The notes: generated from the sequence alone by a model not told the origin. 64,000 nt of DNA from Alphaproteobacteria bacterium (GCA_052143835.1 JBKQRV010000142.1:8995-72994); one strand, 5' to 3'; positions 5,974-35,487 are shown, counted from the first letter of the stretch. A program made the numbers and translations.

Positions 5974-7464
5974 ATGGCTGAATACGACGTGATCGTGGTC
6001 GGCGCCGGCAACGCCGCGATGTGCGCGGCCCTTGCCGCGCGCGAGCAGGGCTGCCGCGTGTTGGCACTCGAGCGGGCACCGCTTGACGAGCGCGGCGGCA
6101 ACTCGACCTTCACGGCCGGCGCCATCCGCGTCGCCTACAACGGGCTCGAGGACCTGCTCGAGCTCATGCCCGACCTCTCCGAGGAGGAGCGGCGCAACAC
6201 CGATTTCGGGACCTACAGCGAGGACCAGTTCTTCGACGACATGGCGCGGATCACCCAGCATCGGGCCAACCCGGACCTCGTCGAGCTCTTGATCCGCCGC
6301 AGCCACCCGACGCTCAAATGGCTGCGCACCAAGGGCGTGCGCTTCGTGCCCATCTACGGCCGGCAGGCCTTCAAGGTCGACGGCAAGTTCAAGTTCTGGG
6401 GCGGGCTCACCGTCGAGACGTGGGGTGGGGGTCCCGGCCTGGTCGACGCGCTCCACAAGGCCGCCCAGGCGAACGGCATCGAGGTGCGCTACGAGAGCCG
6501 CGCGCTCGGCCTGCTCGCCGACGACTCGGGCGTGCGCGGCGTGCGCGTCAAGGCCAAGGGCGTCACCCAGGAGCTCGGCGCCAAAGCCGTGGTGCTCGCC
6601 TGCGGCGGCTTCGAGGCGAACGCCCATTGGCGCACGCGTTATCTCGGCCCCAATTGGGATCTGGCCAAGGTGCGCGGCACGCGCTTCAACACCGGCGACG
6701 GCATCCGCATGGCGCTCGAGGTCGGCGCGCAGTCATGCGGCAACTGGTCGGGCTGCCACGCCGTGGGCTGGGACCGCAACGCGCCCGAGTTCGGCGACCT
6801 CGCCGTCGGCGACGGCTTCCAGAAGCACAGCTATCCCTTCGGCATCATGGTCAACGCGAGGGGCTTGCGCTTCGTCGACGAGGGTGCGGACTTCCGCAAT
6901 TACACCTACGCCAAGTACGGCCGCGTGATCCTCGAGCAGCCCGGCCAGTTCGCCTGGCAGATCTTCGATCAGAAGGTGGTGCACCTGCTGCGCGATGAAT
7001 ATCGCATCCGGCGCGTGACCAAGGCGCAGGCCGACACGCTCGAGGAGCTCGCCGGCAAGCTCGAGGACGTGGACGCGGAGCGCTTCCTCGCGACGGTCAG
7101 CGAATACAATGCCGCCGTCGATCAGACGGTCCCCTTCAATCCGAACGTCAAGGACGGCCGTGCCGCGAAGGGCCTCGCCGTGCCGAAGAGCAACTGGGCG
7201 AACACGATCGAGCGCCCGCCCTTCCTCGCCTTCGCCGTCACCTGCGGCATCACCTTCACCTTCGGCGGCCTGCGCATTACCAACGGCGGCCAAGTGGTCG
7301 ACACGGAGGGGCAGCCGATTCCGGGCCTCTATGCCGCGGGCGAGCTCGTCGGCGACATCTTCTACTTCAACTACCCCGGCGGCACCGGCCTCATGTCGGG
7401 TGCCGTCTTCGGCAAGATCGCCGGCACCTCGGCGGCCGCCGCCGCGAGCGGGGGAAATGACTAA
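5974..7464 (+). CDS. tcuA: FAD-dependent tricarballylate dehydrogenase TcuA-like flavoprotein
   Basis: Starts MAEYDVIVVGAGNAAMCAALAAREQG (FAD Rossmann) and has a GGNS motif. Length about 496 aa, with a GAGG RBS 9 nt upstream; ORF 5881 is an N-terminal extension artefact. Confidence 0.75.
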   Translation: MAEYDVIVVGAGNAAMCAALAAREQGCRVLALERAPLDERGGNSTFTAGAIRVAYNGLEDLLELMPDLSEEERRNTDFGTYSEDQFFDDMARITQHRANPDLVELLIRRSHPTLKWLRTKGVRFVPIYGRQAFKVDGKFKFWGGLTVETWGGGPGLVDALHKAAQANGIEVRYESRALGLLADDSGVRGVRVKAKGVTQELGAKAVVLACGGFEANAHWRTRYLGPNWDLAKVRGTRFNTGDGIRMALEVGAQSCGNWSGCHAVGWDRNAPEFGDLAVGDGFQKHSYPFGIMVNARGLRFVDEGADFRNYTYAKYGRVILEQPGQFAWQIFDQKVVHLLRDEYRIRRVTKAQADTLEELAGKLEDVDAERFLATVSEYNAAVDQTVPFNPNVKDGRAAKGLAVPKSNWANTIERPPFLAFAVTCGITFTFGGLRITNGGQVVDTEGQPIPGLYAAGELVGDIFYFNYPGGTGLMSGAVFGKIAGTSAAAAASGGND

Positions 7465-7467
7465 GTC

Positions 7468-7635
7468 TCAACACGGAGGACACGGAGGACACGGAGGACA
7501 CGGAGAAGAAAGCGAAAGACCTCCAAGGCGGAATGATACGAAGGGGACGAGTACGCATCGCGCATAAGCCTGCCCTGGCGTCATCTTGTTCCCTTTTCCC
7601 ATTTTCCTCCGTGCCCTCCGTGTCCTCCGTGGTGA
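7468..7635. repeat. self-complementary intergenic repeat element (copy 1), terminal inverted arrays of nonamer CACGGAGGA
   Basis: 7472-7505 carries 3.8 tandem copies of CACGGAGGA. 7606-7632 carries 3 copies of the reverse complement TCCTCCGTG. About 100 bp separates the arms. A second copy is at 31975-32177. Confidence 0.7.
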
Positions 7636-7670: not shown

Positions 7671-8558
7671 ATGGCGATGGCAGAGAAAGAGCCGATCGGA
7701 TTCATCGGGCTCGGCGTGATGGGCGAGCCGATGTGCGCGAACCTCGCGCGCAAATGCGGTGTACCCGTGATCGCCTACGACATCCGCGCGGAGCCGCTCG
7801 CGCGGCTCGGCGCAGACGGCGTGCGCCCGGCCACCTCGGCGGCCGAGCTCGCGCGCGAGGCTGGCGTCGTGATGCTCTCGCTGCCGAGCGGGAACGAGCT
7901 CAGCACCCTTGCCGAGGGCGAGGAGGGCCTCCTTGCGATTTGCCGTCCGGGACAGCTCGTCGTCGATCTCGGCACCTCGCCCGTCGGGCTCACGCGCGCG
8001 CTCGCCGAGCGCTTCGCCCGCAAGGGCGTGGATTACGCGGACGCCCCCGTGGCCCGCACGCGCGAGGCGGCGAAAGCGGGAACTCTCAGCATCATGGTCG
8101 GCGCCAGCAAGGCCGTATTCCGGCGCCTTGAGCCGCTTCTCGCGTGCTTTGCCAGCGACATCACCCATTGCGGCGAGGTCGGCGCGGGCCAGGTGGTCAA
8201 GCTCGTCAACAACATGGTGCTCTTCGAGATCGGCACAGCGCTCGGGGAAGGCCTGGCACTTGCGCGCCGCGCAGGCGTCGAGGGCGAGCTCCTTTTCGCC
8301 ACCCTCACCAAGGGCTCGGCCGACAGCTTCGCGCTGCGCAATCACGGGATGAAGGCGATGCTTCCGGGCCTCTTCCCGGAGCGCGCCTTCTCGGCCGAAT
8401 ACGCGCTCAAGGACGTGAGCTATGCGCTCGAGCTGGCGAAGACCGTCGGCCTCGATCTGCGGGGTGCTGAGCTCGCGCGCACCATCCTCGGCGAAGCGAT
8501 CGCGGCGGGCCATGGCGCCCTCTACTGGCCGGTGATCGCAAAGCTGATCGACGCCTGA
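7671..8558 (+). CDS. NAD(P)-dependent oxidoreductase, 3-hydroxyisobutyrate dehydrogenase / 2-hydroxy-3-oxopropionate reductase family
   Basis: IGFIGLGVMG dinucleotide-binding motif with a HIBADH-type catalytic and C-terminal helical domain; 295 aa from the internal Met. Confidence 0.8.
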   Translation: MAMAEKEPIGFIGLGVMGEPMCANLARKCGVPVIAYDIRAEPLARLGADGVRPATSAAELAREAGVVMLSLPSGNELSTLAEGEEGLLAICRPGQLVVDLGTSPVGLTRALAERFARKGVDYADAPVARTREAAKAGTLSIMVGASKAVFRRLEPLLACFASDITHCGEVGAGQVVKLVNNMVLFEIGTALGEGLALARRAGVEGELLFATLTKGSADSFALRNHGMKAMLPGLFPERAFSAEYALKDVSYALELAKTVGLDLRGAELARTILGEAIAAGHGALYWPVIAKLIDA

Positions 8559-23976: not shown

Positions 23977-26900
23977 ATGGCAGAACCGCTCAGGATCTTC
24001 ATCTCCTCGCCCGGCGACGTCGAGGAGGAGCGTCGGCGCGCGGCAATCGTCGTGGGCAGGCTCGCCCGCGAATTCGCGCGCTTCTTCGAGATCAAGCCGG
24101 TGCTTTGGGAATACGAGCCCATGCTCGCATCGGGCCACTTCCAGGACATCATCGAGCCGCCTTCGCGCTCCGACATCGAGGTGGTGATTCTGTGGTCGCG
24201 CCTCGGCACGCCGCTGCCGGCCGAGCGTTACCGCGGGATCGATGGACGGGCACCCGTCACCGGCACGGAATGGGAGTTCGAGGACGCGCTCAAGGCCCAC
24301 CGCGAGCGAGGTGCTCCGGACCTCCTGGTCTACCGCAAGAAGACCAAGGGAATCGCCGAGTTCGACAGCACGGAAGAGCTCGAGGCGGCGGCACTTCAGC
24401 GCAAGGCGCTCGAGCAGTTCTGGGAGCGCTACTTCGGCAGCGCTCAGAGCGGCTTCAAGGCGGCGTTCAACCTCTTCACCGACCGCGACGAGTTCGAGCA
24501 AATGCTCGAGTCGCACCTGAGGACGCTCATCCGCGAGCGCCTGCCGCGGCTCGCGGAGTCGCGCCGAGCCTCCGCCGAGATCGCCTGGCACCAAGGCTCG
24601 CCCTATCGCGGGCTCCAGTACTTCGATCTCGAGCACGCGCCGATCTTCTTCGGCCGCGCGCGCGCGCAACGCCAAGTGACCGAGGCGCTGGCGCGCCGCG
24701 CGGCAGAGGGCTCTGCCTTCGTGCTCGTCTTGGGCATGAGCGGCTGCGGCAAGTCCTCGCTCGTGCGCGCCGGCGTGCTGCCCGAGCTGATGACGCCGGG
24801 CGTGGTGAGCGGCGTCGGGATGTGGCGGCACTGCGTGTTCCGGCCGAGCGAAGGCGAGGGCGACCTGATCGGCGGGCTGATCCGGGCGCTGTCGGAGCGG
24901 GAGCAGGCTCTGCCCGAGCTCTTGGAGGGCGGCCTCAGCGTCGAGCAGGTGAGCGCTCTTGTGCGCGACGTGCCGCATCAGGCGACCGTGACGATCGCAC
25001 CGAGCCTCAAGCGCGCGGCCGAGCGCGTCAAGGGTATCGCCGGCGAGGGCCGCCTCATCCTCGTCATCGACCAATTGGAGGAGATGTTCTCGCTCCCCTC
25101 GGTCGACAAGGAGGCGCGCGAGCGCTTCGTGACGCTCATCGCAGCCCTTGCGGAGAGCCGGGTCGTGTGGGTGATCGGCGTGATGCGCAGCGACTTCTAC
25201 CACCGCGCCGCCGAGTTGCCGGTCCTCGTGCGGCTTGCGGCCGGCCGGGGAAGCTACCTGCTCACCGAGCCGACCGCGCCGGAGATCGCGGAGATGATCA
25301 ATCAACCGGCCGCCGCCGCCGGGCTCGCCTTCGAGGTGGACGCGGAAAGCGGCGAGCGGCTTGACCGGGTGCTGCAGGAAGCGGCGGCCCGCGAGCCGGG
25401 CGCCTTGCCGCTTCTCGAGTTCGCGCTCGACCAGCTCTATCGCAAGGACATCGAGGAGAAGCACGGCGAGGTCCTGACCTTCGCGAGCTACCGCGATCTC
25501 GGCGAGCTAAGGGGTGCGGTGGCGCGCCACGCGGACGAGGTGTGCGACGCCTTGCCGGCGGACGCGCGAGCGGCGCTTCCGAGCGTATTGCGCGCGCTGG
25601 TCACCGTGGGGTCGGGGGAGGACCGCGCCACCGCGCGCGCGGTGCGTCGCGACGAGATCGGCGCCAATGCGGCGCGGGCCGCCGTCATCGACCGCTTGAT
25701 CGAGGCGCGCCTGCTCGTGAGCAGCGAAGAGGAGGGTGCCGGACAGGTTCGTCTCGCGCACGACATGCTCATCGCAAGCTGGCCGCGCCTCAGGGATCTC
25801 GTGGCCGAGGATCGCGACTTCCTGCGCACGCGCGAGCGGGTCGACCAGGCGGCGGTGGAATGGGAGCGGCGCGGCCGGGCCGACGATTTCCTTTTGCCGG
25901 GCGGCCGCTCGCTCGCCGAGGCGGAGGACCTGCTCGCGCGGCGCAGCGAGGATATCGAGAGCCGCGACCGCCTCTTCATCGAGACCTCGGTTCGGCGCGA
26001 GCGCGCGCAGCGGGAGCGGCGGCTGAAACAAACGCGCGCGGTCGCCGCCGTGATGGGGCTGCTCGCCGTGGTCGCCGCCGGCTTCGGCTGGTACGCCTAC
26101 GACCGCCGCGCCGCGGCGGAGCGCAATTACGAGATCGCCGTGCGCGCGGCTCAAACGCTCGTTCGCGACGTGGCGGACCGCCTGCGCAACCTCGGCCTGC
26201 CCGCAGCCAGCGTGCGCGACATCCTGACGAGCGCCGAATCGCTTTACAAAGACCTCACTCTCGACGCCGCCTCGCGGCCCGACCTTCTCGGCCGGAAGGC
26301 GGAGACGCTGATGTCGCTCGCCGACACCTACGCGGCACTCGGGGATACCGGTGCCGAGCGCAAGCGGGCCGAAGAGGCGCGCGCGGCCTTCCTCGATCTC
26401 ATCGCAAAGCACCCGAACGATACGACCTGGCAGCGCGACCTTTCCGTCAGCCAAAACAAGGTCGGAGACGCGCTTCGCGCCCAAGGTGATCTGGCCGGCG
26501 CGCTTGAGAGCTATCGCGCCGGCCTGGATACCACGGAGAAGCTCGCGGCGCGCGATGCTTCCAACGCCGTCTGGCAGCGCGATCTCGCCATCAGCCACGA
26601 GCGCATCGGCGACACGCTCACCGCGGAAGGAGACCTCGGCGGCGCGCTCGCCAGCTATCGCAAGGGCCTCGCGATCCACGAGGCGCTGGCGAAACGCAAT
26701 CCCTCCGATAGCGAGGGGCAGCGCGACCTTTCAGTCAGCGACAACAAGATCGGCGACGCGCTCCGCAATGGCGGAGAGCCGGCGGAGGCGCTCAAGAGCT
26801 ACCGCGCCGGCTTGGCGATCATGGAAGCGCTCACGGCGAAGGATCCCTCGAACACGCAGTGGCTGCGCGACCTCGCCATCAGCCACGAGCGGATCGGCAA

Positions 26901-28233
26901 TGTACTCCGCATCCAGGGCGACGAGACGGAGGCGCTTGCGAGCTACCGCAAGAGCCTCGCGATTCACGAGCAACTTGCGGCGCGCGACTTGTCCAACACG
27001 GTGTGGCAGCTCGACGTCTCCATCGGCAACGAGAGGATCGGCGACATGCTCGCCAGCCAGGGCAATCTCGCGGAGGCGCTCAAGAGCTACCGCACGTCCC
27101 TCGGGACGCGAGAGAGGCTGGTGGCGCGCGATCCCTCCAATTCCGACTGGCAGCGCGATCTCTCGGTTGGCGAAAACAAGGTGGGGGACGTGCTCCGCGT
27201 CCAGGGCGATGCGAAGGGCGCGCTTGCCAGCTATCGCACGGGCCTCGACATCATGGAGAAGCTCGTGGCGCGGGATCCCTCGAATGCCGGCTGGCAGCGG
27301 GATGTCTCAATCAGCTACGAGCGGATCGGCGATGCGCTGGCCGCCCAGGGAAACCAAGGAGAGGCGCTGGCGAGCTATCGCAAGAGCCTCGATATTCGCG
27401 AGAAGCTTGCCGCGCGCGACCCATCCAACATCGGCTGGACCTACGACCTGTCCATCAGCAATACCAAGATCGGCGACGCGCTCCGCGCACAAGGGGACCA
27501 GGACGGAGCGCTTGCGAGCTATCGCACGGAGCTCGCGATCGTCGAGAAGCTGGCGGCGCGCGACCCCACGAACGCGGAGTGGCAGCGCGACGTCTCCGTC
27601 GGGCAAAACCGCATCGGCGACGTGCTCCGCGCGAAGAACGACTTGGGGGGAGCGCTCGCGAGCTATCGTACCGGTCTTGCGGTCATGGAGAAGCTCTCGG
27701 CGCGCGATCGTGCGAACGCGCTTTGGCAGCACGATCTCTGCGTCAGCTACGAGCGCATCGGCGACGTGCTGGCGCTTCAACGGGATCCCGCGGGGGCGCT
27801 CGCATACTATCGGCAGGAGCTCGAGCTCATCGGCAAGCTTGCGGCGGCCAATCCCTCGAACCTCTCCTGGCAGCGCGAGCTCTACCTCACGCAAAACCGC
27901 GTCGGCAACGCGCTTGCCGCAACGGGTGATCAGGCGGGAGCGCTCGCGAGCTTTCGCGCCGGCCTTGAGACCATTTCGCCGCTGGCATCGCGCGATCCAT
28001 CCAACACCGGCGAGCAGCACGATCTCGCCGTCAGCCACGAGCGGATCGCGAGCGCGCTGAGCGCGCTCGGGAACCAGGCCGAGGCGCTTGCAAGCTACAA
28101 TAGGAGCCTCGAAATCATCGAGACGCTCCTCGCGAAGCAGCCGTCGAATACACTCTGGCAGCATGATCGCTCCTATTTGCGCGGCGAAATCGGGACTCTC
28201 GCAAAAAATTCGCCAAGCGGTTCCGCCCAATGA
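23977..28233 (+). CDS. STAND-type P-loop NTPase with N-terminal DUF4062/TIR-like domain, single TM helix and C-terminal array of about 13-14 TPR_10/12-type (42-aa) repeats
   Basis: N-terminal IFISSPGDVEEER plus a conserved acidic TEWEFEDAL. Walker A is VLVLGMSGCGKSSLV and Walker B is LILVIDQLEE. TM helix is AVAAVMGLLAVVAAGFGWYAY. The C-terminal repeats have WQRDL anchors. An AGGA RBS precedes the ATG at 23977; the ORF's upstream extension to 23818 is rejected. Confidence 0.75.
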   Translation: MAEPLRIFISSPGDVEEERRRAAIVVGRLAREFARFFEIKPVLWEYEPMLASGHFQDIIEPPSRSDIEVVILWSRLGTPLPAERYRGIDGRAPVTGTEWEFEDALKAHRERGAPDLLVYRKKTKGIAEFDSTEELEAAALQRKALEQFWERYFGSAQSGFKAAFNLFTDRDEFEQMLESHLRTLIRERLPRLAESRRASAEIAWHQGSPYRGLQYFDLEHAPIFFGRARAQRQVTEALARRAAEGSAFVLVLGMSGCGKSSLVRAGVLPELMTPGVVSGVGMWRHCVFRPSEGEGDLIGGLIRALSEREQALPELLEGGLSVEQVSALVRDVPHQATVTIAPSLKRAAERVKGIAGEGRLILVIDQLEEMFSLPSVDKEARERFVTLIAALAESRVVWVIGVMRSDFYHRAAELPVLVRLAAGRGSYLLTEPTAPEIAEMINQPAAAAGLAFEVDAESGERLDRVLQEAAAREPGALPLLEFALDQLYRKDIEEKHGEVLTFASYRDLGELRGAVARHADEVCDALPADARAALPSVLRALVTVGSGEDRATARAVRRDEIGANAARAAVIDRLIEARLLVSSEEEGAGQVRLAHDMLIASWPRLRDLVAEDRDFLRTRERVDQAAVEWERRGRADDFLLPGGRSLAEAEDLLARRSEDIESRDRLFIETSVRRERAQRERRLKQTRAVAAVMGLLAVVAAGFGWYAYDRRAAAERNYEIAVRAAQTLVRDVADRLRNLGLPAASVRDILTSAESLYKDLTLDAASRPDLLGRKAETLMSLADTYAALGDTGAERKRAEEARAAFLDLIAKHPNDTTWQRDLSVSQNKVGDALRAQGDLAGALESYRAGLDTTEKLAARDASNAVWQRDLAISHERIGDTLTAEGDLGGALASYRKGLAIHEALAKRNPSDSEGQRDLSVSDNKIGDALRNGGEPAEALKSYRAGLAIMEALTAKDPSNTQWLRDLAISHERIGNVLRIQGDETEALASYRKSLAIHEQLAARDLSNTVWQLDVSIGNERIGDMLASQGNLAEALKSYRTSLGTRERLVARDPSNSDWQRDLSVGENKVGDVLRVQGDAKGALASYRTGLDIMEKLVARDPSNAGWQRDVSISYERIGDALAAQGNQGEALASYRKSLDIREKLAARDPSNIGWTYDLSISNTKIGDALRAQGDQDGALASYRTELAIVEKLAARDPTNAEWQRDVSVGQNRIGDVLRAKNDLGGALASYRTGLAVMEKLSARDRANALWQHDLCVSYERIGDVLALQRDPAGALAYYRQELELIGKLAAANPSNLSWQRELYLTQNRVGNALAATGDQAGALASFRAGLETISPLASRDPSNTGEQHDLAVSHERIASALSALGNQAEALASYNRSLEIIETLLAKQPSNTLWQHDRSYLRGEIGTLAKNSPSGSAQ

Positions 28234-30493: not shown

Positions 30494-31949
30494 GCCCTTC
30501 GCGACCACCGCGAAAGCGGGCGGCCGGCTCGTCATCGTCGCCGCCAATGCGCCGGCCGAGGCCGCCGGCATTGCTCCCGGCCAAGTGCTGGCGGACGCGC
30601 GCGCGCTTGAGCCGGGCTTGCGTGTCGTCGCCGCCGACCCCTCTGCCGACGGCTCTGCCCTTGCAGCCCTTGCCGACGGGTTGACGCGCTACACCCCTTG
30701 GGTGGCCGTCGACGAGCAGGGGGAAGGTGGCGCGCGCGGCGCGCTTCTCGACATCACCGGCTGCGCCCATCTCTTCGGCGGCGAGGCGGCCCTCTTGGCC
30801 GACCTCATAGGCCGGCTCGAGCGCTGCGGCTTCGCCGCGCGTGCGGCAATCGCAGCGAGTGCGGGGGCCGCCTGGGCGGTCGCCCGCTTCGCTCCTCACG
30901 ATCGCCTCATCATCGCGCCCGGCGCCGAGGGCGAAGCGCTCGCGGCTCTCCCCGTTGCCGCCTTGAGGCTGCCGGCCGAGACGGCGGGCAGGCTCGAGCG
31001 CCTCGGGCTGCGCCGCATCGGCGCCCTCTATACGCTGCCGCGGGCACCCCTCGCACGCCGCTTCGGGAGCCTCGTCGGCCGCCGTCTCGACCAAGCGCTC
31101 GGCCGCGTGCAGGAGCCGATCTCGCCGCGCCGGCCGGTCGAGCCCTGGCGCCTCCAGCTCGCCTTTGCCGAGCCGATCGCGCAACGCGAGGATATCGCGG
31201 CCGCCACTGAGCATCTCACGGCCGCGCTCTGCCGCCGCTTGGCCGAGGAGATGAAGGGCGCGCGCCGGCTCGTCCTCGCACTTTACCGGGTCGACGGCAC
31301 CCTCGCGCGCGTCGAGATCGGCACCAGCCGCCCGGTGCGCGAGACCAAGCATCTCATGCGTCTCTTCGCCGAGAAGCTCGACGGCCTCGACGTCGGGCTC
31401 GGCCTCGACCTCGTGGCGCTTTCCGCCCCCGTGGTCGAGCCGCTCGCGGCGTCCCAGAGCGGCCTGCTCGCTGGCGCGAGCGAGGCAGCGCTGCCCGCGC
31501 TCGCTGCCCTTGTCGACCGCCTCGCCAACCGCCTCGGCGCGAGCGAGGTACGCCGGCTGGTCCCCGTCGCGAGCCACCTTCCCGAGCGCGCCCAGCGCGC
31601 GGCCCCGGCACTGGCCTCGGCGGGTGCCGCGGAAGCTCCTTGGCGTAAGCGCCGGCCGCGTCCCTTGCGCCTCTTCACGCGACCCCAGCCGGTCGATGCG
31701 ATCGCCCCCGTGCCCGATGATCCCCCCCTCCTCTTCCGCTGGCGCGCGCAGCTCCACCGCATCCGCCGCGCCGACGGGCCCGAGCGCATCGCCGGCGAGT
31801 GGTGGCAGGGCAACACCCCCGCCCAAGCCGAGGTGCGCGACTATTATAGGGTCGAGGACGAGGCGGGCAGGCGCTTCTGGCTCTATCGCGAGGGCCTCTA
31901 CCACCCCGAGCGCCGCCCGCGCTGGTTCCTCCACGGGCTGTTCGCGTGA
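30408..31949 (+). CDS. imuB: Y-family DNA polymerase-like protein ImuB
   Basis: 513 aa starting MRRIVSLSLPSFATDRL (UmuC-like N-terminus). It overlaps the imuA 3' end in another frame and lies upstream of dnaE2. Confidence 0.8.
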   Translation: MRRIVSLSLPSFATDRLTRLPALAAWRAKPFATTAKAGGRLVIVAANAPAEAAGIAPGQVLADARALEPGLRVVAADPSADGSALAALADGLTRYTPWVAVDEQGEGGARGALLDITGCAHLFGGEAALLADLIGRLERCGFAARAAIAASAGAAWAVARFAPHDRLIIAPGAEGEALAALPVAALRLPAETAGRLERLGLRRIGALYTLPRAPLARRFGSLVGRRLDQALGRVQEPISPRRPVEPWRLQLAFAEPIAQREDIAAATEHLTAALCRRLAEEMKGARRLVLALYRVDGTLARVEIGTSRPVRETKHLMRLFAEKLDGLDVGLGLDLVALSAPVVEPLAASQSGLLAGASEAALPALAALVDRLANRLGASEVRRLVPVASHLPERAQRAAPALASAGAAEAPWRKRRPRPLRLFTRPQPVDAIAPVPDDPPLLFRWRAQLHRIRRADGPERIAGEWWQGNTPAQAEVRDYYRVEDEAGRRFWLYREGLYHPERRPRWFLHGLFA

Positions 31950-31974: not shown

Positions 31975-32177
31975 CACCACGGAGACACGGAGGACACGGA
32001 GGACACGGAGAAGAAGAAAGCAAGATCTAACGCAGAGGTCGCGAAGGATGCGACGCCAGAGGCGTCGCATCAGTGGACGCAGAGGAATAATTTTTCTCCG
32101 CGTCCTCTGCGCATCCTCCGCGTCCTCTGCGCTGAACAATGCCTTCTCTTCTCCGTGTCTTCCGTGTCTCCGTGGTG
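31975..32177. repeat. self-complementary intergenic repeat element (copy 2) between imuB and dnaE2
   Basis: Near-perfect terminal inverted repeats: CACCACGGAGACACGGAGGACACGGAG (31975-32010) and CTCCGTGTCTTCCGTGTCTCCGTGGTG (32151-32177). Internal features are CGCAGAGG/CCTCTGCG inverted pairs and a 17-mer direct repeat CTCCGCGTCCTCTGCGC x2. Confidence 0.7.

Positions 32178-32202: not shown

Positions 32203-35487
<3,285 letters not shown>

Follow-up and report, generated by a model that had tools for sequence, protein, structure and literature searches.

Two intergenic palindromes were analyzed in a 64,000-nt stretch of DNA from an Alphaproteobacteria bacterium (GCA_052143835.1, JBKQRV010000142.1:8995-72994; the whole stretch is called the window below), namely element 1 at 7468–7635 and element 2 at 31975–32177. 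Both are long and imperfect, with arms of three to four tandem CACGGAG heptamers in an 8–9-nt register and outer ends of the TTCACC/GGTGAA type. Arms of this kind flank genes of the GxxExxY family elsewhere, and the two elements are probably gene-less members of a nuclease-associated foldback cassette family, comparable to the repetitive extragenic palindromic (REP) sequences and REPINs with their RAYT partners. For the complete cassette of CRCNRAG arrays and GxxExxY gene, we tentatively propose a possible reading as an unrecognized class of minimal selfish element. Such an element would be about 450 bp long, would encode only a Cas4/lambda-exonuclease-like nuclease of ~123 residues, and would carry triple-heptamer recognition sequences at both ends. 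It would spread by homing-like break and repair in more than 10 phyla, mobilizing ~10 times more gene-less hairpins. Mobility and cleavage are inferred here from architecture and are not direct observations.

The membership of the window copies was assessed with an arm profile built from 84 arms flanking GxxExxY genes, to which neither the window nor the 16-mer scan described below contributed. In the 64-kb window, nhmmer gave four strong matches, which were the four arms of the two elements: the left arm of element 2 (E = 2.6e-8), the right and left arms of element 1 (E = 1.3e-7 and 7.1e-6, respectively), and the right arm of element 2 (E = 1.1e-3). All the matches lay within the two elements, and the inner CGCAGAG arms of element 2 were matched weakly (E 0.07–0.18). 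Twenty shuffled windows yielded a single match, with a score of 10.8. Furthermore, elements 1 and 2 each carry 4 + 3 heptamers, in line with the family arm of about three. Their interiors of 88 and ~134 nt contain no match to the GxxExxY hidden Markov model (HMM) and belong to the short, gene-less size class.

Element 1, delimited by repeat and fold analysis, is a complete gene-less foldback of 168 bp. The spacer that contains it is 206 nt long; the upstream gene, FAD-binding and tcuA-like, ends at 7464, and the downstream gene, HIBADH-like, begins at 7671. The left arm (7468–7507, plus strand) opens with the outer end TCAA, followed by four CACGGAG heptamers at 7472–7478, 7481–7487, 7490–7496 and 7499–7505 in a 9-nt register. 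The right arm (7596–7635, plus strand) contains three CTCCGTG heptamers at 7607–7613, 7616–7622 and 7625–7631, and closes with the outer end GTGA. Tandem Repeats Finder gave 3.9 copies of ACACGGAGG at 7471–7505 with 100% matches, and 2.9 copies of CCTCCGTGC, the complement of the left unit, at 7606–7631. In the repeat search, the arms measured 40 nt each, were 85% complementary and stood 88 nt apart. The ends of the element read TCAACACGG...CCGTGGTGA, and the interior (7508–7595, 88 nt) was partly self-complementary and contained no open reading frame (ORF).

Element 2, delimited in the same way, is a gene-less foldback of 203 bp between an imuB-like gene ending at 31949 and a dnaE2-like gene starting at 32203; like element 1, it occupies a spacer between co-directional genes. 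Its left arm (31975–32012, plus strand) begins with the outer end CAC and carries CACGGAG at 31978–31984, 31986–31992, 31995–32001 and 32004–32010. Its right arm (32147–32177, plus strand) carries CTCCGTG at 32151–32157, TTCCGTG at 32160–32166 and CTCCGTG at 32168–32174, followed by the outer end GTG. The arrays amounted to 3.8 copies at 31978–32010 and 3.0 copies at 32150–32174 (Tandem Repeats Finder), the segments 31975–32001 and 32151–32177 were 96% complementary, and the ends read TTCACCACGG...CCGTGGTGC. The repeat search also revealed a nested inner foldback at 32026–32133, with CGCAGAG/CGCGAAG units on the left (~32030–32052) and CTCTGCG/CTCCGCG units on the right (32096–32131), which encloses a perfect 11-bp hairpin at 32047–32071.

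The single strands of both elements were predicted to fold into very stable hairpins, at −90.3 kcal/mol (z = −8.2) for element 1 and −134.8 kcal/mol (z = −13.1) for element 2, and none of 200 shuffled sequences folded as well. Elements 1 and 2 share the arms and ~40 nt of the interior, and their flanks are unrelated, indicating that they are not parts of a segmental duplication. The bare 9-mer was not enriched across the window when one mismatch was allowed (25 matches versus 19.5 expected), and all its exact matches fell inside the two elements. These results were in agreement with an earlier note on this DNA, which had described tandem copies and inverted complement copies at 7468–7635 and a homologous element at 31975–32177. 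It had proposed folding as a check, and had named a segmental duplication that includes the flanks as the finding that would count against it. The repeat unit had been taken as a nonamer in that note; the conserved unit is instead the heptamer CACGGAG with a free spacer of 1–2 nt.

The wider family was sampled by scanning one genome per species for the 16-mer CACGGAGGACACGGAG, which returned at least 120 loci; the locus counts below use the 120 matches listed. By our own estimate, a few hundred chance occurrences of a 16-mer are expected in ~600 Gb, and lone matches therefore carry little meaning. An architecture like that of the window elements was present at 69 of the 120 loci, with the shared layout (T)TCACC-ACGGAG-n-CACGGAG-nn-CACGGAG ... 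variable interior ... CTCCGTG-nn-CTCCGTG-n-CTCCGTGGTGAA. Exactly three heptamers were counted in 138 of 222 arrays, spaced by 8 or 9 nt and then by 9 nt, and the array consensus was tTcACC-ACGGAG-g(a)-CACGGAG-ga-CACGGAG-aa. The outer ends took the form T(T/G)(C/A)ACC ... GGT(G/T)(A/C)A, with inverted arms and the purine-rich arm first on either strand, a form to which the window elements conform.

The partner gene was identified by all-against-all clustering of the ORFs that neighbor these loci. One small ORF family stood out by abutting the arrays, and it corresponded to TIGR04256 "GxxExxY protein" (E ~1e-44) and PF13366 PDDEXK_3 (E ~1e-42); no other protein family was common to the neighborhoods of the 120 loci. 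A GxxExxY ORF occurred at seven of them, within 60 nt of an array in six, and two (L080 and L065) were full arm-gene-arm units of ~480–530 bp. In the reverse test, 80 metagenome GxxExxY genes were picked by protein patterns only. Arrays were present upstream of 57, downstream of 59 and on both sides of 49. Several of the remaining 13 genes, which had no array of the strict pattern, had heptamers of variant sequence (CGCCGAG, CACGGAA) or arms in swapped order. The commonest heptamers around GxxExxY genes were CACAGAG, CGCAGAG and CACGGAG, and the family consensus is accordingly CRCNRAG; the two arms of one cassette usually carry the identical variant. In addition, arrays were found on both sides of the GxxExxY gene annotated in RefSeq in Bacteroides finegoldii (L342, between radA and a FAD protein gene) and Bernardetia (L345). 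Only the left arm was present in Sphingomonas (L343, between fabD and fabG), and in Gemmatirosa (L346) a partial GxxExxY gene was followed by a gene-less hairpin.

The complete cassette measures ~430–480 bp (median of full units, 452 bp) and comprises a left arm of three CRCNRAG heptamers, an ORF of ~123 codons and an inverted right arm. The ORF starts 0–20 nt past the last heptamer, and the right arm follows the stop codon by a few nucleotides. For instance, the exact unit of 434 bp between gatA and gatB in L332 reads TTAACCACGGAGAACACGGAGAGCACGGAG|ATG...TGA|ACCTCCGTGGCCCTCCGTGTCCTCCGTGGTTAA; its ATG comes after the third heptamer and is preceded at ~9 nt by the second GGAG. Paired arrays had a bimodal spacing of 0–150 nt without a gene and 350–450 nt with one. 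Cassettes occupy short spacers within the operons of their hosts, mostly in the sense orientation: the GxxExxY gene pointed the same way as both host neighbors in 19 cases and opposite to both in 3. Gene decay is visible in L065, where the gene is frameshifted, and in L032 and L346, where only part of it is present.

The precise enclosure of the ORF by the arms would also suit an explanation in which insertion is confined to gene-bearing cassettes, a later deletion removes the ORF from between its arms, and the leftover hairpins are inert scars, with no action in trans. The arms would then serve expression of the nuclease, through the Shine-Dalgarno-like GGAG ahead of the ATG, sequestration of the start codon, coupling of translation to the gene upstream, or release of the ORF by RNase III. 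The co-orientation with host genes, the visible gene decay and the bimodal interior lengths, which are as expected for full units and deletion products, all agree with this account. It is nevertheless considered unlikely: complete gene-less copies outnumber gene loci about 10:1 (69 versus 7) among the 16-mer matches listed, and the window interiors hold no gene remnant. Further observations against it, on dispersal within one genome, on nesting and on persistence in relatives, are given below.

The GxxExxY protein itself is a minimal PD-(D/E)XK nuclease by its alpha-beta-beta-beta-alpha-beta core and D...(D/E)XK motif, with predicted catalysis. In 26 sequences, 62–92% identical to the first, residues D67, E77, K79, Q91 and Y95 were invariant, of which D67/E77/K79 form the PD-(D/E)XK motif and Q91/Y95 the QxxxY motif. 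This combination is typical of nucleases of the RecB/Cas4/lambda-exonuclease type. No solved structure was detectable by sequence. The AlphaFold2 model had a mean pLDDT of 93.5, and the top folds in Foldseek were Cas4 SSO0001, LHK-Exo and lambda exonuclease, with weak E values (~1e-3) and TM-scores of 0.5–0.6. No match to PADLOC or PHROGs was obtained for membership in a defense or phage family. At 50% identity, the family comprised 35,152 clusters with a cutoff of E <= 1e-3, and 15,714 clusters when the cutoff was tightened to E <= 1e-10. In a survey of PD-(D/E)XK proteins, PF13366 was listed as "Unknown", with multiple transfers between divisions (PMC3424549).

The repeat family spans more than 10 bacterial phyla and is not a lineage-specific miniature inverted-repeat transposable element (MITE). 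The listed loci of CACGGAGGACACGGAG came from Acidobacteriota, Planctomycetota, Verrucomicrobiota, Gemmatimonadota, Bacteroidota, Spirochaetota, Chloroflexota, Cyanobacteria, Actinomycetota, Bacillota and several proteobacterial classes. Among cultured organisms, an element lay between gmd and fcl of Bacteroides ovatus, and elements were also present in B. finegoldii and on megaplasmids of Gemmatirosa kalamazoonensis. Viral contigs in IMG/VR contained many gene-less copies, with no GxxExxY gene in 120 fetched stretches, and the consensus element had no match in E. coli genomes or GenBank phages. Interiors were unrelated across genomes and homologous inside one genome; the Rhodocyclaceae UBA2271 metagenome-assembled genome has four copies on three contigs, 81% identical over the full length and with unrelated flanks. 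Copies nested within copies were observed in L071, L114, L251 and element 2. This mutual nesting and the homologous interiors of gene-less copies at unrelated loci of one genome are difficult to reconcile with inert scars, and the copies at unrelated loci confirm that the window elements belong to a dispersed foldback family rather than being a one-off palindrome, as the earlier note had held; the further copies it called for beyond the window exist in many genomes. Multiple arrays can also occupy one operon: in a Pyrinomonadaceae sugar-modification operon (L007, 1246–3548), arrays were seen in three successive intergenic gaps, as two complete elements and one single array.

What is conserved in the arms was determined on 66 elements found through the exact 16-mer on one arm, by scoring the unconstrained partner arm. 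Mismatches amounted to 3.5% in the heptamer columns and 42% in the spacer columns. In co-directional contexts, the sense strand carried 59 G·U-type and 63 A·C-type mismatches, with no excess of G·U. The result indicated selection on the heptamer sequence in both arms, and not on an unbroken stem or on an RNA helix specifically. This bears on the view that the elements are host-beneficial RNA hairpins, which would stabilize upstream cistrons, serve as RNase III sites or attenuate read-through like E. coli REP, with the nuclease as an occasional passenger. The placement of the elements fits such a role. Of 99 classified elements, 55 lay in co-directional intercistronic spacers, and convergent spacers (27) were favored over divergent ones (14). 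The elements often abut the upstream stop codon, with a median distance of 35 nt and one quarter within 9 nt. The very stable predicted hairpins and the persistence at the same sites in relatives point the same way. Against it, stems are broken at about 42% of spacer positions while the heptamer is kept, as expected of sequence recognition rather than pairing, and G·U is no commoner than A·C. Moreover, the identical heptamer recurs across phyla that differ in RNA-processing machinery, and a single cargo family is hard to square with a passenger. On balance, we regard a host RNA function as quite improbable.

No promoter-like or terminator-like site was found inside either element, the combination of GC-rich stem and U-tract that marks a Rho-independent terminator was absent from both, and the sequence 3' of the arms across the family was A-rich and not T-rich. 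With Rfam 15, only two tRNAs in the window reached the gathering threshold, and the elements gave no more than sub-threshold hits to generic miRNA-precursor-like hairpins, such as MIR1858 at 51 bits versus a threshold of 137; no Rfam family was therefore assigned to them. The suggestion in the earlier note that such elements may act as attenuators or small RNA genes is not supported by these data, and the lack of a terminator-like site and of an Rfam assignment also counts against the host-beneficial RNA hairpins considered above. The content of GGAGG/CCUCC in the arms had also led us to consider a sponge for Shine-Dalgarno/anti-Shine-Dalgarno pairing or for CsrA-type GGA binding. This candidate was rejected, since the Bacteroides units are mostly CACAGAG there was no RNA-specific wobble signal, and the match to the 16S tail is confined to the core.

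In having terminal inverted repeats and interiors that vary, and in occurring as multiple, sometimes nested copies, the elements also resemble a classical MITE, that is, a deletion derivative of an insertion sequence moved by a DDE or Y1/HUH transposase that recognizes the terminal inverted repeats. Target-site duplications, however, did not exceed the chance level: 48 of 79 elements had no flank match and 23 had a match of one base. ORF clustering gave no transposase family among the 120 loci, the sole recurrent partner abutting the arrays being PF13366. Inspected array pairs 0.5–2 kb apart enclosed no transposase, and three pairs with listed ORFs enclosed ordinary host genes. A classical MITE origin is thus very improbable. 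Of the MITE- or REP-like family proposed in the earlier note, dispersed foldback repeats as such are supported, and a classical DDE-type MITE is not. An autonomous element between distant arrays was tried as a separate candidate and rejected, as the ORFs between arrays 1.5–2.3 kb apart in L015, L036 and L007 were ordinary host genes.

The sites of both window elements were compared with those of relatives. In the imuB-dnaE2 spacer, L244 (DnaE2 95% identical) carried element 2 but lacked a single 9-nt unit and a single inner unit of 20 nt, and L245 (94% identical) kept the arms of element 2 around an unrelated interior. The site of element 1 was occupied in L249 and L250 (HIBADH-like protein 90–91% identical). 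In L251 (71% identical), the element was present with a nested CACAAAG-type copy in its interior, and in L248 (92% identical) the spacer was only 23 nt long and the element was absent. At fixed sites, the arms thus persist or are restored, the interiors turn over and the array copy number varies. That gene-less arms stay conserved, with their interiors replaced, even where the flanking proteins of two relatives share only 71% identity again speaks against inert scars.

Two further observations were made at the imuB-dnaE2 site. The replacement interior of L245 (5675–5770) is itself palindromic (...TCGCGATGACGGCTTGAGTTCGTCATTGCGAGGAGGCGAAGCCGACGAAGCAATC...) and may belong to a different repeat family of Alphaproteobacteria that has become nested in the loop of the hairpin. 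In the more distant relatives L246 (9355–10004) and L247 (9283–10004), the spacer contains a FitA-like/PIN toxin-antitoxin pair, and this spacer within the imuA-imuB-dnaE2 cassette thus seems to serve various selfish elements as a landing site.

In the reading that we consider probable, that of gene-less members of a nuclease-associated cassette family, the heptamers, three per arm, are probably the recognition sites of the GxxExxY nuclease. Copies without a gene would be substrates of the enzyme in trans, much like REP/REPIN for RAYT. Other copies would then provide the template for repairing breaks in or close to the arms, with the arms as short homology. Break and repair between copies would explain the spread, the homogenized arms, the swapped interiors and the nesting in hairpin loops. 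In the transcripts that run from the tcuA-like to the HIBADH-like gene and from imuB to dnaE2, the window copies would fold as very stable intercistronic hairpins, perhaps as processing sites. From the geometry of the cassette, the GGAG for ribosome binding may come from the arm, which in folded RNA would also hide the nuclease start codon. With such sequestration, expression of the nuclease could depend on translation of the upstream host gene.

Several points weigh against this reading. The gatA-GxxExxY-gatB cassette was in the same context in 10 of 10 sampled assemblies, and when the identical nuclease P0266 was sought at several loci as a sign of movement, only the gatA-X-gatB context was found, so this test provided no evidence of movement. 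A single approximate empty site (L248) is available, with flanks that have diverged too far for the junctions to be placed. With the gatA-gatB cassette fixed and the window elements common to relatives, much of the pattern could reflect vertical inheritance and not active movement. In addition, the 64-kb window and the fetched flanks of close relatives contain no GxxExxY gene. Binding, cleavage and transposition are on record for no GxxExxY protein, PF13366 being listed as "Unknown" (PMC3424549). The heptamer variants, with A or G at positions 2 and 4, may track base composition and not nuclease specificity. Finally, the arms are not uniform, being swapped in L283, L300, L306 and L329 and repeated as direct tandem left arms in L297.

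These unusual arrangements are described here in their own right. In the four swapped-arm loci (~1430–1930 in each), a CTCTGTG-type array lies upstream and a CACAGAG-type array downstream of the GxxExxY gene, with the TTAAC ends toward the gene. The downstream neighbor in all four opens with a methylmalonyl-CoA-mutase-like B12-binding sequence (MAEKKIRVLIAKPG...). This layout is not explained by a simple arm-gene-arm model. In L297 (280–1220), left-type arms were amplified in tandem as ~87-nt units on both sides of the GxxExxY gene, all direct and with no right-type arm, and the arrays appear prone to local amplification. In Prevotella nigrescens (L347, 1360–1990), the GxxExxY gene is flanked by another short unit of the ACAAATC/G type, e.g., ACAAATCGGGACAAATCGAACAAATAGAA, in place of CRCNRAG. 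The nuclease is itself divergent, with 43% identity to the query, and these repeats may represent an arm type that has diverged along with it. Some proteins of 240–295 residues in the representative library (P0361–P0375) have two GxxExxY domains, and may be tandem cassettes read through the arms or genuine fusions.

A foldback intergenic repeat is known as a general kind. In open-access full text and Rfam, the sources covered, no prior description was found of the partner enzyme, the three-heptamer ends or the pan-phylum conservation. The repeat strings occurred in no relevant paper, no link of GxxExxY/PF13366 to repeats was found, and searches of the full text for heptameric or small dispersed repeats and for PDDEXK mobile elements as concepts gave no match to the family. 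The multi-phylum spread, the heptamer unit and the enclosed GxxExxY PD-(D/E)XK gene had not been foreseen in the earlier note. GxxExxY/PF13366, a large family annotated in RefSeq genomes, is now tied to a defined DNA signature, which provides a testable hypothesis, namely that the nuclease is specific for sequence or structure and has three CACGGAG-type heptamers as its target. The link to the cassette also explains unannotated hairpins in essential operons (gatA-gatB, fabD-fabG, imuB-dnaE2 and gmd-fcl), even in the well-studied Bacteroides. If the selfish-element reading is true, it would give a role to more than 15,000 clusters at 50% identity and account for pan-bacterial intergenic hairpins. 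Mobility, if true, would make this a REP/RAYT-like system built on a different enzyme, unusual for its near-constant end sequence across phyla. In practical terms, the arrays cause mis-called ORF starts, with N-termini such as ...HHGDTEDTEKK..., and could mark operon-internal insertion hotspots.

Two other repeats were observed in the window. Inside dnaE2 (32203–35487), a C/G-rich imperfect palindrome of ~100 nt at 34610–34715 (CCCTCCCCCCTCAAGGGGGAGGGGGA ... TCCCCCTCCCCCCTTGAGGGGGAGGG) is translated in frame as ...SPPPQPSPLKGEGEVSEHADAPPPPLRGRVREGG.... The segment varied in close relatives and was absent from the more distant DnaE2 proteins P0007, P0009, P0010, P0013 and P0037, and it looks like an in-frame palindromic-repeat insertion in a surface loop, comparable to the Rickettsia palindromic elements. 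At 26427–27914, a tandem repeat with a diverged unit of 144 nt (10.3 copies, 65% matches) lies in a large ORF that has nSTAND/AAA_16/TPR Pfam matches in the source contig (ERZ25039587 contig_66595, a metagenome contig assigned to an alphaproteobacterial metagenome-assembled genome), and probably represents coding TPR repeats.

Compared with known systems, the family has features of several. Like bacterial MITEs, the elements measure 60–250 bp, carry terminal inverted repeats around a non-coding interior, and occur in multiple copies and as nested insertions; unlike them, they have no target-site duplication or DDE transposase, and their ends are arrays of three short direct repeats. They resemble integron attC sites in their imperfect inverted repeats, conserved short end boxes, variable center of 10 to >100 nt and position between co-oriented genes (compare L007). 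However, the ends do not fit the RYYYAAC/GTTRRRY core sites, no integrase is associated, and the flanks are housekeeping operon genes. In the intervening sequences of 23S rRNA (S23p/four-helix-bundle, PF05635), an inverted-repeat stem surrounds an ORF of ~120 codons in a transcribed host gene and is tolerated because the stem can be processed. The likeness is a long stem enclosing a small ORF in transcribed host DNA, whereas the ORF family and the host site are different. The elements with long interiors that were examined contained no PF05635-like cargo.

Homing endonuclease genes, whether free-standing or carried by introns and including the PD-(D/E)XK type such as I-Ssp6803I, are likewise small selfish nuclease genes in host transcription units, and the break and repair from filled to empty site proposed here is of their kind. 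The putative empty site would differ, being a dispersed hairpin repeat in place of a unique host gene sequence, and cleavage is predicted here from architecture. REP/REPIN with RAYT also consist of short extragenic hairpin palindromes with many gene-less copies, few of them flanking one small enzyme gene. In both systems target-site duplication is absent, spacers at the 3' ends of genes are preferred, and the copies, having no obvious function, have been treated as mere repeats. The partner here, however, is a PF13366 PD-(D/E)XK nuclease and not a Y1 HUH transposase, and the arms are direct triple heptamers with neither internal dyad symmetry nor a GTAG/CGTC tag. REP sequences are species- or genus-specific, whereas the heptamer arms of the GxxExxY cassette family are nearly constant across phyla.

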